Origin: an uncultured Clostridiaceae bacterium
GTDB lineage: Bacteria > Bacillota > Clostridia > Lutisporales > Lutisporaceae
DNA: 64,000 nt
Assembly (NCBI GenBank): GCA_964477445.1
Contig: CAYZED010000004.1
Location: 16,180 to 80,179, forward strand
Direction of reading: 5' to 3'
A model generated the notes under the pieces. That model was not told the DNA's origin, did no database searches, and saw only the letters and a program-made list of their open reading frames with translations. Shown one piece after another: positions 44,619-53,741 of the stretch (within the stretch, counting starts at the first letter, position 1; each line of letters starts with the position of its first letter). The position numbers and the translations under genes were made by a program.

Positions 44619-45599
44619 CTAGAACCACTTGTTTTTCTTTATGAATAGCATTACACCTATTATCGAAGTCGGTATAAATATCATCCCAAAAACTATCCAA
44701 AAGGCTTGCGGATAAGTATGCATCGGAATGCCCTGTACATTCATAGAAAAAAGGCCACTTACCAATATCATAGGCAAAATTGTTACCTGTATAATTGTAA
44801 ATGTTCTCATCAATCCATTCATTGTGTGGTTTGTAAGAGAAGTAAAAGTATTATCAGCTGATTCAATGACTTCTTTGTAATTCTCGAGCATATCCCAAAT
44901 CTTTTCTATTCTATCTGTTATATCATCAAAATATATATCCATATCTTCAGGCAAATATTTTTTTATTATACGTTCAAGCATTAATATAACTGGCCTCAGC
45001 GGCTTAATTACGCTGCGATAATTAATAATCTGCATTTTCGCTCGAGAAATCGTTTCAAGCATTTTTTTTGATCTGTCCGAGAAAACTTGCTTATTTATGT
45101 CATTAACTATATAGCCGATTTTGTCAATAATTGGGAAGCAATAGTCAAACAATGATTTAGTGATTTCATAAAGTAGCAGAGCCGATCCATTTTCCATGTA
45201 TTCTTTTCTTGCTTCTTCATCTGTATAGCAAAGTTTTGCAAGTTCAGTGATTGGCTTAAGTTCGCCCTCATGGAGAGTAACAAGATAGTCTGGCCCAATA
45301 AATATATCTATTTCTTCCGTATCTAATCTCACAAGTTCTTTTCTGTACCGAGGTAAGTGTAGGACGATAAAGCTATAATCTTCATAAGAATCGACTTTGG
45401 ATCTCTGATGTTCTGTCATACAGTCTTCCAGAAGTAGATCATGAAAATCATACATGTCCTTCAACATCTTGATTTCTTTATTTGTTGGCTTAATAATGTC
45501 AATCCACTTCAGTCCATTAAATTCAATAATCTTGACATCTCCGGTAATTTTTTTTATCTTACCGAAGTATTTCTTTTCATTTCCGAATGGCAATACCAT
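44619..45599 (-). CDS. corA: CorA-family divalent-cation (Mg2+/Co2+) channel with SMN in place of the GMN signature
   Basis: 326 aa. Cytoplasmic funnel domain plus two C-terminal TM helices. The TM1 end reads GLFSMNVQGIP (codons TCT ATG AAT at 44747..44739). KKNKWF C-terminus. M-box riboswitch upstream. Confidence 0.85.
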   Translation of the reverse strand: MVLPFGNEKKYFGKIKKITGDVKIIEFNGLKWIDIIKPTNKEIKMLKDMYDFHDLLLEDCMTEHQRSKVDSYEDYSFIVLHLPRYRKELVRLDTEEIDIFIGPDYLVTLHEGELKPITELAKLCYTDEEARKEYMENGSALLLYEITKSLFDYCFPIIDKIGYIVNDINKQVFSDRSKKMLETISRAKMQIINYRSVIKPLRPVILMLERIIKKYLPEDMDIYFDDITDRIEKIWDMLENYKEVIESADNTFTSLTNHTMNGLMRTFTIIQVTILPMILVSGLFSMNVQGIPMHTYPQAFWIVFGMIFIPTSIIGVMLFIKKNKWF

Positions 45600-45604
45600 A
45601 AATA

Positions 45605-45629
45605 TTCCTCCTTTTTTTCAAGGAGAACC
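45605..45629 (-). promoter_or_regulatory. SD-sequestering hairpin at the corA start
   Basis: Minus-strand UUCUCCUU-GAAAAA-AAGGAGGA: 8 bp including one G-U, covering the whole corA SD (AGGAGG). The ATG is 7 nt further on. Confidence 0.5.
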
Positions 45630-45721
45630 TATATTGAAGAAAATCTACAATAGAAAATGGTCTCCCTGAGTAATATTAATTTTTTTATACAATATGAGTT
45701 TGGGTAGGGGTCACTGTCCAT
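45629..45721 (-). CDS. candidate 30-codon leader ORF (MDSDPYPNSYCIKKLILLRETIFYCRFSSI)
   Basis: Below the ORF-track cut-off. SD AAGGAGG lies 9 nt upstream of the ATG (45721..45719). The TAG stop (45631..45629) abuts the 5' arm of the corA SD-sequestering hairpin. Confidence 0.4.
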   Translation of the reverse strand: MDSDPYPNSYCIKKLILLRETIFYCRFSSI

Positions 45722-45753: not shown

Positions 45754-45789
45754 TATTCAGACAAATAGATATATCCTTTTGTCTGAATA
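45754..45789 (-). other. perfect 12-bp inverted repeat (TATTCAGACAAA / TTTGTCTGAATA) with 12-nt loop
   Basis: Direct reading. Lies in the corA leader between the tandem repeats and the leader-ORF SD. Confidence 0.85.
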
Positions 45790-45802
45790 GAATCGAAACT
45801 AC

Positions 45803-45990
45803 GTCACTCCGACAACAAAAAACCCGGTTATTTTGTCACTCTGACAATAAAAAACCCGGTTATCGTCACGTTGACAACAAAAAACCGGTTATTTTATTGT
45901 TCGTGAACAATAAAAAACCTGGTTATTTTTGTCGATATAAACGACAAAAAAACCTGGTTATTTTTGTCGATATAAACGACAAAAAAACCT
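45803..45990 (-). repeat. ~5.7 tandem 30-35 bp hairpin-forming repeats in the corA leader
   Basis: Units at 45803-45834, 45835-45864, 45865-45895, 45896-45930, 45931-45965 and 45966-~45990. Conserved core AAAAAACC(N)GGTTATTTT plus a variable palindromic core. The last two units are identical. Confidence 0.9.
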
Positions 45991-46018
45991 GCATCAAAAA
46001 CATGAACTTGATGAAGGT
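45981..46018 (-). terminator. M-box expression-platform intrinsic terminator
   Basis: Minus strand CCUUCAUCAA-loop-UUGAUGCAGG (9/10 paired) followed by U7, starting 16 nt after the aptamer P1 3' strand. Confidence 0.7.
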
Positions 46019-46033
46019 ATTATTACAATACTT

Positions 46034-46179
46034 TCTCGTTCAAGTTTTGACTCTGCAAGGCAATGAAGTTGCATTAGGTTAAACCTTCTTTGTTCGGTAA
46101 AACCTGCTGACCAGTTCAGAATGTTTCCATTCTTTTACGGCAGCAACCCGTATCCTTGTAGTAATCTCACCTACCGAGA
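46034..46179 (-). promoter_or_regulatory. M-box (ykoK-leader) Mg2+ riboswitch aptamer
   Basis: The minus strand reads UCUCGGUAGGUGAG..GGAUACGGGUUGCUGCCGUAAAAG..CUGGUCAGCAGG..AAGGUUUAACCUAAUGCAACU..GAGUCAAAACUUGAACGAGA. This is collinear with the B. subtilis mgtE M-box landmarks (GUUAGGUGAG, UACG, CUGCUGCC, GGUCAACAG, UAAUGCAGCU, GCUAAAGCUCUACGA). P1 is UCUCG/CGAGA. Confidence 0.85.
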
Positions 46180-46204
46180 TATTTTAAATTTTATTTCACT
46201 TCCC

Positions 46205-46233
46205 ATGCTACTAGCATTCTTCATATATGTCAA
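46205..46233 (-). promoter_or_regulatory. candidate promoter for the M-box/corA transcript (TTGACA-17-TAGCAT)
   Basis: On the minus strand: -35 TTGACA (46233..46228), 17-nt spacer, -10 TAGCAT (46210..46205). Lies ~25 nt upstream of the aptamer. Confidence 0.4.
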
Positions 46234-46245
46234 ATGGTTTTTTGA

Positions 46246-46536
46246 CTACTCGAGTGATTTAATTTGCAAATAATAATTCGTCATTCTTTTGAAGGATTCC
46301 GTTTTTGATGAAATTCCATCAATCGTCTGGCTAATGTTTTTTACTTCGCGAGTTGTAATCTCAATTATGTTTTGTTTCGCTTCAGAAAGAAGCGTATTTT
46401 TAGTCTTAATTGCAATATATCCAGTAACCGAAAAATACATAATTAAAAGTGTTACTTCAATTATAAGAATAGGTAATAACGCTGCACGGATATATTCACT
46501 GTAAACAATATCCTTCAAGGATTTTAACTTCTTCAT
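46246..46536 (-). pseudogene. 96-codon ORF resembling only the N-terminal TM/Cache-like start of a membrane sensor (kinase/MCP/GGDEF); probable truncated remnant
   Basis: MKKLKSLKDIVYSEYIRAALLPILIIEVTLLIMYF...LLSEAKQNIIEITTREVKNISQTI looks like the first ~95 residues of 500-700-aa sensors. The frame stops 67 nt before the M-box, with no output domain. Confidence 0.3.
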
Positions 46537-49178: not shown

Positions 49179-51236
49179 ATGAATAAAATCCGAAAAAAAA
49201 TCGCTATTATTACAGGCACAGAATCAACAAAAACGCACGTTTTGGAACAACTTTATCCTCTTCTCTCAGGCTTAGTAGATATTGAAAGCTACGCCACAGA
49301 TAGTAAAAATATGCCGATGCTAAATGTTGATTTAGCGATAATTACTTCACCATTAGTTAAAGACGAAGCCATACCGTTTATTAACAAAAATTGTACTGTT
49401 CTTTTTGCAAGAAGAGCATTAGATTTCTCTTCCCTAGAAAAATTATTTTCAATCCCTGAAAAATCTGAAGTTTTACTAGTAAACGATGAGAAAGAAACTG
49501 CATACGAAGTAATCGAGTTGCTCAAAGAATCCGGAATAGATCATTTTAACCTCACTCCATTTTACCCAGGCGCAATAATAGAAAAAAAGTTTGAAATTGC
49601 TATAACCCCTGGCGAGTCAGCATTCGCTCCAGAAGGTATATTTCAAACAATCGATATTGGCCCGAGACTAATTGATTTAACTACCGTCGTTGAGATTCTC
49701 CAAAAACTTGATTTAATGGACGAAAAGGCTCACTATGTTTCTGCGAAATACTTTGAAACCATTGTTCGACTAGGGAAACAACTATATCAATCAAACAAAG
49801 AATACACCCGTGCAAATGAAAATCTGAATAAAATTCTCAATAGGATTAATGATGGAATAATCGCCTTTACAAAAAATGGAAAAATCACAGTTTTTAATCA
49901 AAAAAGCGAAGAAATTTTTATGATTCCCTACAAATCCGCCATCGGCAAGAATATTAGCAAAGTTATAAAAGATCCAGAGTTAATTAATTACTTGGTTGAT
50001 AAATCCTCCGAATACGATCATTTGTACACTATTGGGGATATCAAATATGCTATTACTCGATTCTTCTCGGACAGACTAGATGCTTATGTCGTAACTATTA
50101 AAAGTTCTGAAGATATAGCTGTTCTCGAAACAAAAATGCGTAGAAATTTGATACAAAGAGGACATATTGCGAAATATAGTTTCAACGATATCATTTATAA
50201 ATCAGAAGCTATGAAGAACACCGTTGAAATAGCAAAAAAAATCGCTCGAACTGAATTATCAACTCTAATATATGGAGAAAGCGGAACGGGAAAGGAACTT
50301 TTTGCTAGTTCAATACATAATTTCTCTCATAGGGCTGGCGGGCCTTTTCTTGCAGTAAATTTCAGTGCATTGCCAGAATCTTTGGTTGAGAGTGAATTAT
50401 TCGGCTATGAAGATGGCGCCTTTACTGGAGCTAGAAAAGGTGGTCACATAGGGTTGTTTGAGCAAGCTAATGGCGGAACTATATTTTTAGATGAAATTGG
50501 CGATACCTCTCCAAAAATTCAAGCTCGACTTCTTAGAGTTCTGCAAGAAAAGGAGATTATGAAGGTCGGCGGTTCAAAAATAATTCCGGTAAATGTGAGG
50601 GTTATCGCTGCTACTAATAAAAATTTAGTTGAAATGTGTAAGGCCGGCTCCTTCCGCGAAGATCTTTATTACCGATTGAAAAAGCTTTATTTAGCTACTC
50701 CAACCCTCCGAAATAGAAAAAACGATATTCCAGAGTTGATAAAATACTTCCTTCAGTTAAATAATTCTTCTCAATATGATTTAAGTCAAAATGTTCTGAA
50801 TGCTTTAGCATCTTATGAATGGCCAGGAAATGTTCGAGAACTTGAAAACACTGTTGAATACATGCTAGCTGTTTGTGATGGATGTGAAATAAATATCGAT
50901 CACCTTCCTCAAGACATTTGTTGCTCAAAAGAAGCTTCAAATGAACCAAATTCGATATATATCGAATTGTGCAACAAAGGCAACATCGACGAATATTTGT
51001 TCATATTAAACGCTATTGAGGCAAGACAAAAAAGCGGGCTTTCTATTGGTCGAAAAACACTAAGTGACATTACTTCTGCATTTCATTACAAGTTATCAGA
51101 AGAACAAATCAGATCCCGAACCGATACTTTATTAGCGATGGATCTAATCTCTAAAAATCGCGGACGTGGCGGCATGAATATTACAAAAAAAGGCTCAAAT
51201 TTTTTGTTTTCATTGGTTACGTGTTCAACCAATTAA
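49179..51236 (+). CDS. sigma-54-dependent transcriptional activator (bEBP) with PAS sensor region and atypical winged-helix-like C-terminus
   Basis: 685 aa. AAA+ Walker A GESGTGKE, sigma-54 contact loop GAFTGA, Walker B IFLDEIG, PAS-like DGIIAFTKNGKITVFN. No receiver domain. Confidence 0.88.
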   Translation: MNKIRKKIAIITGTESTKTHVLEQLYPLLSGLVDIESYATDSKNMPMLNVDLAIITSPLVKDEAIPFINKNCTVLFARRALDFSSLEKLFSIPEKSEVLLVNDEKETAYEVIELLKESGIDHFNLTPFYPGAIIEKKFEIAITPGESAFAPEGIFQTIDIGPRLIDLTTVVEILQKLDLMDEKAHYVSAKYFETIVRLGKQLYQSNKEYTRANENLNKILNRINDGIIAFTKNGKITVFNQKSEEIFMIPYKSAIGKNISKVIKDPELINYLVDKSSEYDHLYTIGDIKYAITRFFSDRLDAYVVTIKSSEDIAVLETKMRRNLIQRGHIAKYSFNDIIYKSEAMKNTVEIAKKIARTELSTLIYGESGTGKELFASSIHNFSHRAGGPFLAVNFSALPESLVESELFGYEDGAFTGARKGGHIGLFEQANGGTIFLDEIGDTSPKIQARLLRVLQEKEIMKVGGSKIIPVNVRVIAATNKNLVEMCKAGSFREDLYYRLKKLYLATPTLRNRKNDIPELIKYFLQLNNSSQYDLSQNVLNALASYEWPGNVRELENTVEYMLAVCDGCEINIDHLPQDICCSKEASNEPNSIYIELCNKGNIDEYLFILNAIEARQKSGLSIGRKTLSDITSAFHYKLSEEQIRSRTDTLLAMDLISKNRGRGGMNITKKGSNFLFSLVTCSTN

Positions 51237-51389: not shown

Positions 51390-51865
51390 CCTTATGGCGC
51401 TATCCAGTATTAATTTTTGTTCAAATTTATTTAAATATCTAATATAACAAAAATTCGTACATATTAATGTGACTCTATCGGTGCATTACATCGACTTTTA
51501 AAGCTACTATGGCAGCTTTTTTGAGAAAGAAACAATATAGTATACCTTACCTTATGACGCTATCTAGTACTAATTTTTGTTCAAATTTATTTAAATATCT
51601 AATATAACAAAAATTCGTACAGATTAATGTGACTCTATCATTGACTTTTAAAGCTACTATGGCAGCTTTAACGAGAAAGAAACAGTATACTTAAGCTTAC
51701 CTTATGGCGCTATCCAGTACTAATTTTTGTTCAAATTTATTTAAATATCTAATACAACAAAAATTCGTACAGATTAATGTGACTCTATCATTGACTTTTA
51801 AAGCTACTATGGCAGCTTTAACGTCAAAAGAAACAGTGTAATTAAGCTTGCCTTATGACGCTATT
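51390..51865 (+). repeat. 3 full + 1 partial tandem copies of a ~150-160 bp non-coding module
   Basis: Units begin at CCTTATG(G/A)CGCTAT at 51390, 51550, 51700 and 51851, giving periods of 160, 150 and 151 bp. Copy 1 carries a 13-bp insertion (GGTGCATTACATC). By eye, only scattered substitutions separate the copies. Confidence 0.92.
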
Positions 51866-52019: not shown

Positions 52020-53741
52020 ATGTCGGAACAAATTAAAAAGAACCGCGAAATCAAAATGCCTCATACCTACGTTATCATTTTTGGTGTTATCCTATTCTGT
52101 TGGCTTCTGACGTTCTTACTACCACTCGGAAAATTTGATGTCCACAAAATTACTTACACAGATGCCAGTGGAAAAGAGAAAACAAAAACCGTTCTTATTA
52201 CTACTTCTTTCCGTTACCAGTATGCTCTTGACAATGCAAAGCTTAGTTCAGCGTTATCAACAATCGCTGCTGACGAAGCTAAACTTACAGGCGCGGGTCT
52301 AGACAAAACCGCTATTGAAGATTTACTAAAAACCGACCAAACTACTTGGACTAACTCAAGTCTAGAAGAAATCGGTCTTACTGAAACTGTCATATATGAT
52401 TTGTTTAAAGAAACTGTATATGACACCTCTAAAAAACTTAAACACAGCCCTGGAATTTGGGGAACTGATGATTTTTATGGCTTCGGTATTCTGAATTATG
52501 TTTTCGAAGGACTCGTTACTGGGGATAAATGGGGCTCAGCTGTCGGAATTGTAGCTTTTATTCTCGTAATTGGTGGTGCTTTCGGAATAATTATGAGAAC
52601 TGGTGCTATAGATGCTGGTATTTATAGCTTTATTGGAAAAATTAAAGGATATGAATCGCTTTCGATTCCTCTACTCTTTATTCTTTTCTCACTTGGAGGT
52701 GCTATCTTTGGGATGTCAGAAGAGACAATTCCTTTTGCAATGATAATTATTCCTTTTGTTATTGCGATTGGCTATGACTCGCTGACAGGTATTGCCGTTA
52801 CTTTCGTGGCAACTCAAGTGGGAAATGCTGCTTCTTGGATGAATCCTTTCGGTGTCGCAATTGCTCAAGGTATTGCAGGAGTTCCAGTTCTATCAGGGGC
52901 ACCTTTTAGAATGGTTATGTGGGTAGTATTCACTGGCGCTGCTGTTACTTATTTAATGTTTTATTGCAAAAAAATCAAGAAAAATCCAGAAGCTTCTCCG
53001 GTCTATAACACTGATAATTACTGGAGAACAATGCATCAATCAAAAGAAGGCGAAAAAATCCAACTTAAACTTGGTCATATATTAGTACTTCTCTCACTCC
53101 TTGCAGGTATTATATGGGTTGTTTGGGGCGTTACAGAAAAGGGCTATTATATCCCAGAAATCGCTTCACAATTCTTCACTATGGGTCTCGTAGCAGGTAT
53201 AATTGCTGTAATATTTAAAATTGGCGACATGACACTAAACGATATTGCTTCTTCCTTCTCAAAAGGTGCAGGCGATTTAGTTGGAGCAGCAGTTGTTGTT
53301 GGTATGGCAAAAGGAGTTTTGCTTGTTCTAGGCGGTTCAGATGCAAGTACTCCTACAGTTTTGAATACCATCCTTAATGCTACAGGAAACGCACTAAAAG
53401 GCTTACCATCAACTATTGTGGCAGTTTTAATGTACGCTTTCCAAAGCGTATTCAATTTCTTCGTTACATCGAACTCAGGACAAGCAGCCCTTACAATGCC
53501 TATTCTCGCACCATTATCTGATTTAGTTGGTGTAACAAGACAGGTAGCAGTTCTTGCTTATCAAATGGGTTCTGGTTTCGCAGATGCTATAGTTCCAACA
53601 TCCGCAAGTCTTATGGGTGTTCTTGGTGTAGCTAGAGTTGAATGGGGAACTTGGGCAAAATGGCAAATCAAAATGCAAGGATTCTTCTTTGTACTTGGTA
53701 CAATATTCATAGTAGTAGCTGTTCTAATTAATTTTAGTTAG
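52020..53741 (+). CDS. YfcC-family (DcuC/AbgT-like fold) anaerobic transporter
   Basis: 573 aa. ~12 TM helices with a soluble insert after TM1. MPHTYVIIFGVI opening and FGMSEETIPF motif are typical of YfcC family. SD AAGGAGGGG. Confidence 0.7.
   Translation: MSEQIKKNREIKMPHTYVIIFGVILFCWLLTFLLPLGKFDVHKITYTDASGKEKTKTVLITTSFRYQYALDNAKLSSALSTIAADEAKLTGAGLDKTAIEDLLKTDQTTWTNSSLEEIGLTETVIYDLFKETVYDTSKKLKHSPGIWGTDDFYGFGILNYVFEGLVTGDKWGSAVGIVAFILVIGGAFGIIMRTGAIDAGIYSFIGKIKGYESLSIPLLFILFSLGGAIFGMSEETIPFAMIIIPFVIAIGYDSLTGIAVTFVATQVGNAASWMNPFGVAIAQGIAGVPVLSGAPFRMVMWVVFTGAAVTYLMFYCKKIKKNPEASPVYNTDNYWRTMHQSKEGEKIQLKLGHILVLLSLLAGIIWVVWGVTEKGYYIPEIASQFFTMGLVAGIIAVIFKIGDMTLNDIASSFSKGAGDLVGAAVVVGMAKGVLLVLGGSDASTPTVLNTILNATGNALKGLPSTIVAVLMYAFQSVFNFFVTSNSGQAALTMPILAPLSDLVGVTRQVAVLAYQMGSGFADAIVPTSASLMGVLGVARVEWGTWAKWQIKMQGFFFVLGTIFIVVAVLINFS

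Follow-up and report, generated by a model that had tools for sequence, protein, structure and literature searches.

The described elements closest to the repeat array in the corA leader are the bacterial intergenic minisatellites (VNTRs), which have units of 10-100 bp and are attributed to slipped-strand mispairing. The array resembles them in its direct repeats, which at 30-35 bp fall within this range, in having newest copies that are identical and older ones beside them that have diverged, and in being confined to one locus and one lineage. It differs in that each unit is an extended palindrome, and in that the first unit overlaps a riboswitch terminator. Imperfect palindromes of 30-40 bp in transcribed extragenic DNA are also found in the REP clusters and BIMEs of enterobacteria and pseudomonads, which fold into hairpins in the mRNA and can stabilise transcripts. 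REPs, however, occur as tens to hundreds of scattered copies, and successive REPs of a BIME point in alternating directions, whereas the units of the array all share one orientation. Moreover, no second copy of the array was found in the window (the whole 64-kb stretch of DNA that was analysed) or in relatives, and no RAYT-type transposase was seen.

The array lies downstream of an M-box riboswitch. The expression platform of this riboswitch is canonical (ykoK/mgtE-type) in the aptamer, the antiterminator/terminator pairing and the U-tract. Described M-box platforms extend no further than the terminator. Here the array is added on, and the orthologous leader of Clostridium estertheticum lacks it. 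The preliminary description knew of no M-box platform with such an array; our literature search also found none, and Rfam has no family for the array. A looser parallel is provided by the Salmonella mgtCBR and mgtA leaders with their short ORFs (PMC3641672), in which two devices act in series, corresponding here to a riboswitch terminator followed by an upstream ORF (uORF). This likeness is one of M-box and uORF modules and not of the repeat array, and the Clostridium uORF has no evident sequence similarity to mgtL, mgtP or mgtM. Finally, template-switch mutagenesis at quasipalindromes (PMC8794818, PMC7202029) offers a selection-free route to perfect stems like those of units h4 to h6 (listed below). 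This is a mutational process rather than a class of element, and by itself it leaves the tandem duplication unexplained.

Layout of the corA leader and extent of the array

The features of the leader are listed below in the order of transcription. All of them are on the minus strand, and the units of the array are numbered h6 to h1 away from the terminator.

46205-46233 (-): candidate sigma-70-like promoter, TTGACA-17-TAGCAT, 5' of the M-box; a pattern match only, 10/12 in a consensus scan
46028-46185 (-): M-box (Mg2+) riboswitch aptamer, RF00380; 112.3 bits (gathering score 44), matched over the whole model (1-169)
46005-46046 (-): antiterminator alternative, in which the 3' strand of aptamer P1 (46046-46027) pairs with 46024-46005; inverted repeat I5
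46017-45988 (-): intrinsic terminator, CCUUCAUCAA-GUUCAUGUUU-UUGAUGCAGG, followed by U7 at 45987-45981; fold -11.1 kcal/mol
45956-45989 (-): unit h6, 13-bp hairpin, -11.8 kcal/mol; nhmmer match; adjoins the terminator
45921-45954 (-): unit h5, 13 bp, -11.8 kcal/mol; nhmmer match; 100% identical to h6
45887-45919 (-): unit h4, head UUGUUC-AC-GAACAA, 14 bp, -9.3 kcal/mol
45858-45886 (-): unit h3, with an A-run ~4 nt shorter; 9 bp, 2 G.U, -7.0 kcal/mol
45826-45856 (-): unit h2, 6 + 4 bp interrupted by an internal loop, -5.9 kcal/mol
45795-45824 (-): unit h1, a decayed terminal unit; 3 bp, -1.9 kcal/mol, equal to the shuffle level; nhmmer E 0.0085
45754-45789 (-): 36-nt palindrome TATTCAGACAAA-N12-TTTGTCTGAATA, located 3' of the array and 5' of the uORF leader; inverted repeat I4
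45629-45721 (-): small upstream ORF of 30 aa, MDSDPYPNSYCIKKLILLRETIFYCRFSSI; RBS AAGGAGG at 45737-45731; homologs of 27-29 aa in seven other species
45606-45627 (-): anti-SD:SD hairpin TTCTCCTT-GAAAAAA-AGGAGGA, predicted to sequester the corA ribosome-binding site
44619-45599 (-): corA, 326 aa; PF01544, E 5.5e-57

The elements of an M-box platform are all in place: the aptamer scores above the threshold, the terminator, with a stem of 10 bp and one mismatch, carries a U-tract, and a mutually exclusive antiterminator uses the 3' strand of P1. The arms of the antiterminator inverted repeat are 20 nt long and 70% complementary, and the segment folds with an energy of -9.4 kcal/mol; the partner segment (46024-46005) includes the 5' arm of the terminator. 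A consensus scan combined with reading of the sequence revealed no further convincing promoter on the minus strand from the array to corA. The spacer from the terminator to the uORF measures ~260 nt, of which the array accounts for ~190 nt. The palindrome at 45754-45789, with its perfect 12-bp arms, is unique in the window, where none would be expected by chance. It sits where the orthologs carry a 5' stem-loop, ahead of the uORF RBS.

The ORF upstream of the promoter (46246-46536, minus strand, 96 aa) matches only residues 1 to ~80 of proteins of 700-1200 aa, the best match being 69% identical to a 757-aa protein, and tblastn found no remainder of this gene in the window. Judged from these matches, the ORF is a truncated gene, with a rearrangement breakpoint near 46300, just 5' of the M-box promoter. 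A rearrangement at this point is compatible with a recombination-prone region, and the array is explicable without it.

The array itself consists of about six head-to-tail units of 30-35 bp at 45795-45989, on the transcribed (minus) strand upstream of corA. About 5.7 such units had been described in the corA leader, which agrees with the output of Tandem Repeats Finder, with the presence of six cores and with a shuffle test. Tandem Repeats Finder reported one repeat at 45803-45964 (period 32, 5.0 copies, 73% matches, score 139) and another at 45912-45991 (period 35, 2.3 copies, 100% matches, score 160). Six copies of the 10-mer AAAAAACCNG are present in register, at spacings of 32, 30, 33, 35 and 35 bp. 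When up to three mismatches were allowed, the core AAAAAACCNGGTTATTTT had 10 matches in the window, eight of them in the array; the mean in shuffled sequences was 1.3, and none of 100 shuffles reached 10. The units are all direct repeats in one orientation and one register, with the consensus GG-U6/7-(R)UUGUC-loop-GAC(A/G)A-A-run-UAACC on the transcribed strand, and the core is an inverted repeat with 9-bp arms (I8). The palindromic heads previously listed were all found. The first unit reads GTCActcCGAC, which is imperfect on the plus strand and forms a G.U pair on the minus strand. The 100%-identical repeat, 80 bp in all, covers the U-tract and also takes in the final 4 nt (CAGG) of the terminator stem; the 5' arm of h6 consists of the GG of this stem and the terminator U-tract. 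The array does merge into the terminator as proposed, its first unit being common to the terminator 3' end and U-tract.

Searching the array against Rfam at permissive thresholds returned only noise (miRNA or Plasmodium RUF1-type low-complexity matches). A CRISPR array was considered and rejected: the conserved core is only ~15-19 bp long, and the “spacers”, at 11-16 bp, are mutually related and palindromic. CsrA-type GGA loops and Rex/LexA-type operators were also weighed from the sequence, and neither fits.

Folding and divergence of the units

Most units fold on the minus strand, where about five abutting hairpins had been proposed. Only four to five are formed, as h1 is at chance level. 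When the whole array was folded, h6 and h5 stayed separate, while h4 to h1 merged into one nested structure. As previously suggested, the units can also fold in a second register, with the A-run of one unit paired to the U-run of the unit that follows; at every junction, however, this register is weaker (-7.5, -1.7, -5.4, -6.0 and -3.4). Pairing in this register would be expected to form later in transcription than the unit hairpins. When the entire leader of 609 nt was folded, most pairing of the array was internal to a unit or between neighbouring units, and outer helices joined parts of the array to the aptamer region, although a fold of that length is unreliable. A terminator scan detected no terminator-like sites inside 45795-45980. 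The U-run of each unit begins 2-3 nt after the stem, and the stems are mostly A-U; the units are therefore poor intrinsic terminators, and the array does not constitute a set of tandem ones.

The units diverge with distance from the terminator. Identity is 100% between h5 and h6, falls to 72-81% between adjacent older units, and is down to 54% between h1 and h6. The h4 unit is 71% identical to h5/h6 and 79% identical to h2. Concomitantly, the hairpin energy weakens away from the terminator (-11.8, -11.8, -9.3, -7.0, -5.9 and -1.9 kcal/mol), and the outer stems formed by the U-run and A-run are broken in h3, h2 and h1. The inner parts of the heads are better preserved: the inner 5 bp are paired in 30/30 cells (3 G.U) across the six units on the transcribed strand, compared to 27/30 on the other strand. 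These counts were made with arms registered by hand in a script; a MAFFT alignment of the six units misplaced h5/h6. The loop-closing pair varies between G-C, C-G, A-U and G.U, and the second head pair changes from C-G to U-A in h4. Changes on both sides of a stem that preserve the pair occur at two stem positions only, among five distinct units that are related by duplication.

The self-complementarity of the variable heads had previously been taken for compensatory change, and thus for selection on structure. Compared to shuffled sequences, the array fold had a z-score of -6.52 on the minus strand and -6.08 on the plus strand. We considered the possibility that the raw energies (-63.0 kcal/mol on the minus and -52.9 kcal/mol on the plus strand) revealed a strand asymmetry indicative of selection at the RNA level. 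However, the shuffled means differ as well (-37.1 and -28.9 kcal/mol, respectively) and the z-scores are equal, so this was rejected. The excess of folding is equal on both strands and thus reflects the palindromes in the DNA rather than either strand by itself. One unit, h3, folds better on the minus strand (-7.0 kcal/mol) than on the plus strand (-2.3 kcal/mol).

Template switching during replication makes and keeps perfect hairpins at quasipalindromes, mimicking compensatory substitution in a selection-free manner (PMC8794818, PMC7202029). Because of this mimicry, selection on structure is not demonstrated by the pattern in the heads. The intact inner heads and the variety of closing pairs are a hint of constraint at the RNA level, amounting to about two or three events in five duplication-related sequences, a number of independent sequences too small to settle covariation. 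The earlier claim fares poorly against the strand-equal fold excess, the decay of the outer stems and the chance-level folding of h1; the two-sided changes are limited to two positions, for which template switching could suffice (PMC8794818). More generally, palindromic tandem repeats call for caution, since they mimic “structure-conserving” RNA evolution: duplication passes on the potential to form hairpins, and template switching can restore them.

Orthologous corA leaders and the upstream ORF

The CorA protein of the window was present in a single NCBI genome (P0001), and its closest relatives are Clostridium proteins with 81-84% identity. Eight loci from five of these relatives had neither an M-box nor the repeat unit. 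In three strains of C. estertheticum (loci L193-L195), whose CorA is 72% identical, the leader starts with a promoter and an M-box of 141-144 bits and continues with a terminator and the uORF leader, up to corA. There is no repeat unit in this M-box-uORF-corA leader, and the spacer is only ~55 nt long. Thus, the composite of M-box and uORF leader works without the array and predates it. We had initially read the M-box together with the array as a recent insertion, from the eight loci lacking the M-box and the truncated upstream gene. This reading was dropped for the M-box when C. estertheticum proved to have the same composite leader; only the array is novel. The M-box is present in the window and in C. 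estertheticum but absent in six closer CorA relatives (L001, L123, L124, L127, L191 and L196), and it must therefore have been gained or lost within the clade. In these six relatives, a TTGAAT-17-TATACT-type promoter and a 5' hairpin take the place of the M-box, directly before the leader. The unit profile found nothing significant with nhmmer in 14 orthologous corA loci, the best match (E 0.8) being located downstream of corA in L124.

A leader of ~130 nt is conserved in the window, in four of the first five relatives (L001, L123, L124 and L127) and in two of three further ones (L191 and L196). It comprises an RBS, an ORF of 27-30 aa and an anti-anti-SD/anti-SD/SD arrangement. Including C. 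estertheticum, the uORF of 27-30 aa is found in the corA leader of eight Clostridium species, at equal distance from corA (for example MDDYSAQNYYKNLILKKGGLSCTTHFN, compared to MDSDPYPNSYCIKKLILLRETIFYCRFSSI in the window). The carriers are the window (45737-45600, minus strand), L001, L123, L124, L127, L191, L193-195 and L196, with the uORF ~130 nt upstream of corA in each case. The uORF spans the anti-anti-SD element and is followed by the anti-SD and then by the SD of corA; it often has Pro codons near its start, and the copy in the window contains an in-frame insertion of 6 nt. A search of Rfam gave no family match for this leader. By analogy, it looks like a translation-coupled leader, loosely similar to the short ORFs in the Salmonella mgt leaders. 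From the arrangement of its SD elements, it appears to gate translation by SD sequestration and not transcription. This conserved leader may be the more interesting by-product of the analysis. A corA clade in which a uORF and an SD-sequestering switch occur with the M-box present or absent is a natural system for the combination and loss of two Mg2+-related controls.

The gene neighbourhood of corA differs in every relative examined. A 5S rRNA gene is located at 270-386 in L123, ~390 nt upstream of corA, and a group II intron domain (RF02004, 172 bits) is found at 3512-3721 in L124, a metagenomic relative, downstream of corA.

Origin of the array and competing explanations

Taken together, the array is probably a young, lineage-specific palindromic minisatellite that is transcribed by read-through, folds into mostly self-contained hairpins and is tolerated by the flanking modules. 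It would thus be a known kind of element, an intergenic palindromic minisatellite, and the most ordinary of the alternatives fits best. The preliminary description had kept a slippage-generated minisatellite as its fallback, and this is the reading best supported by the identity gradient, the decay of distal units and the absence of the array from the ortholog and from the searches described below. The fold excess, being equal on both strands, is as expected for a palindrome at the DNA level. On the other hand, the better folding of h3 on the transcribed strand and the count of paired inner heads stand against a minisatellite, and weak selection on an RNA hairpin would also be expected to produce intact inner heads and variants of the closing pair.

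We infer that a palindromic unit of 30-35 bp, including the last bases of the terminator stem and the U-tract, was duplicated repeatedly in the manner of a VNTR. The expansion would have taken place in what was a short spacer, flanked by the M-box terminator on one side and by the older uORF/SD-sequestering leader on the other. The latest growth was presumably at the terminator-proximal end, while the older distal units have been decaying. Slipped-strand mispairing or unequal exchange between units is the likely mechanism. The hairpin-forming arms would favour such slippage or exchange, and they may homogenise themselves by intrastrand template switching. The array would be transcribed only upon read-through of the riboswitch, at low Mg2+, and would then fold co-transcriptionally into mostly self-contained hairpins of the first register. 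It would thereby add ~190 nt to the 5' UTR with no obvious disturbance of either regulatory module. Its effect is probably close to neutral; at most, the array would modify the stability or elongation of the read-through transcript.

The foremost alternative, which we consider unlikely, gives the array a function as an RNA module in the read-through leader. It would tune corA output after the M-box decision, either through serial pause sites or leaky back-up terminators, made of hairpins with a U6-7 run 2-3 nt further on, or through structured barriers that shield the long untranslated leader from RNases or Rho. The transcribed strand has four to five stable hairpins, with an array z-score of -6.5 relative to shuffles; no unit has lost its inner head stem, G.U pairs are confined to the sense strand, and the closing pairs form a series of G-C, G.U and A-U. 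The untranslated stretch from terminator to uORF is long, about 260 nt, and every unit has a T6-7 run in the non-template strand. Such runs fit TTNTTT, the motif associated with NusG-dependent pausing in Bacillus subtilis. Pausing at units that combine a hairpin with a T-run is conceivable, given NusA/NusG-dependent pausing. However, T-runs are common in this A+T-rich genome, the fold excess is equal on the non-transcribed strand, the distal units are decayed, and the terminator scan found no site in the array, with its U-runs 2-3 nt past A/U-rich stems. The module is also absent from the orthologous C. estertheticum leader. If the array does alter pausing, termination or stability, it would mean that riboswitch leaders can gain tunable modules that vary in copy number.

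In a more specific version, which seems to us distinctly improbable, the array would be a functional extension of the M-box platform that evolves by duplication of units, has heads selected at the RNA level, and sets the read-through to the uORF-gated corA. The heads are the part of the array for which RNA-level constraint was hinted at above. The earlier assumption that the array belongs to the M-box expression platform finds no support in C. estertheticum, whose orthologous leader lacks it.

We give still less credence to an origin from a dispersed palindromic element, either REP/BIME-like or MITE-like, of which a local cluster would have landed beside the terminator, with other copies elsewhere in the genome. 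The units are imperfect palindromes of 30-35 bp in a transcribed extragenic region, like those in REP clusters, and the locus is rearranged, with a truncated upstream ORF (46536-46246). Against this stands the lack of further copies. A profile search of the 64-kb window (nhmmer --max) found the six array units only, and at up to three mismatches nothing else in the window outside the array was a convincing core, while a density like that of REPs in E. coli would give several copies. The unit is also lacking from the 14 loci of the relatives, and a scan of a genome collection with the 18-nt core gave at least 120 matches, those listed being single, unrelated, spread over many phyla and chance-like. 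No similar array was found in metagenome and viral contigs, in which a two-core tandem pattern gave 58 and 4 matches, respectively, all unrelated. Plasmid and phage collections likewise contained no array; in a BLAST search with the leader, only the aptamer was matched, on Cetobacterium plasmids. The units are direct repeats, without the alternating orientation of BIMEs. The occurrence of the unit in many unrelated intergenic regions, which had been suggested as a sign of a generic REP, was thus not observed in the 64-kb window or the 14 orthologous loci, and a dense REP-type family is unlikely, though one of low copy number is conceivable.

Least probable of all, and in our view very doubtful, is an array acting at the DNA level on transcription through the leader. 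Its five operator-like sites (AAAAAACC-N-GGTTATTTT), separated by about three turns of the helix, would be bound by a dimeric protein or would form phased A-tract curvature. The core is indeed an inverted repeat (9-bp arms), the units are spaced 30-35 bp apart and the palindromic signal is strand-symmetric, but that spacing is irregular (30 to 35 bp), the site occurs nowhere else in the window, no regulator gene adjoins the locus, the sites are located downstream of the promoter and terminator and not at the promoter, and they are missing from the ortholog.

A second tandem repeat is present in the window at ~51400-51864, with a period of 150 bp, at least 2.5 copies and 91% identity. It is located in a 780-bp intergenic region between the ORFs at 49179-51236 and 52020-53741, and a further partial copy appears to begin before the coordinates given by Tandem Repeats Finder.
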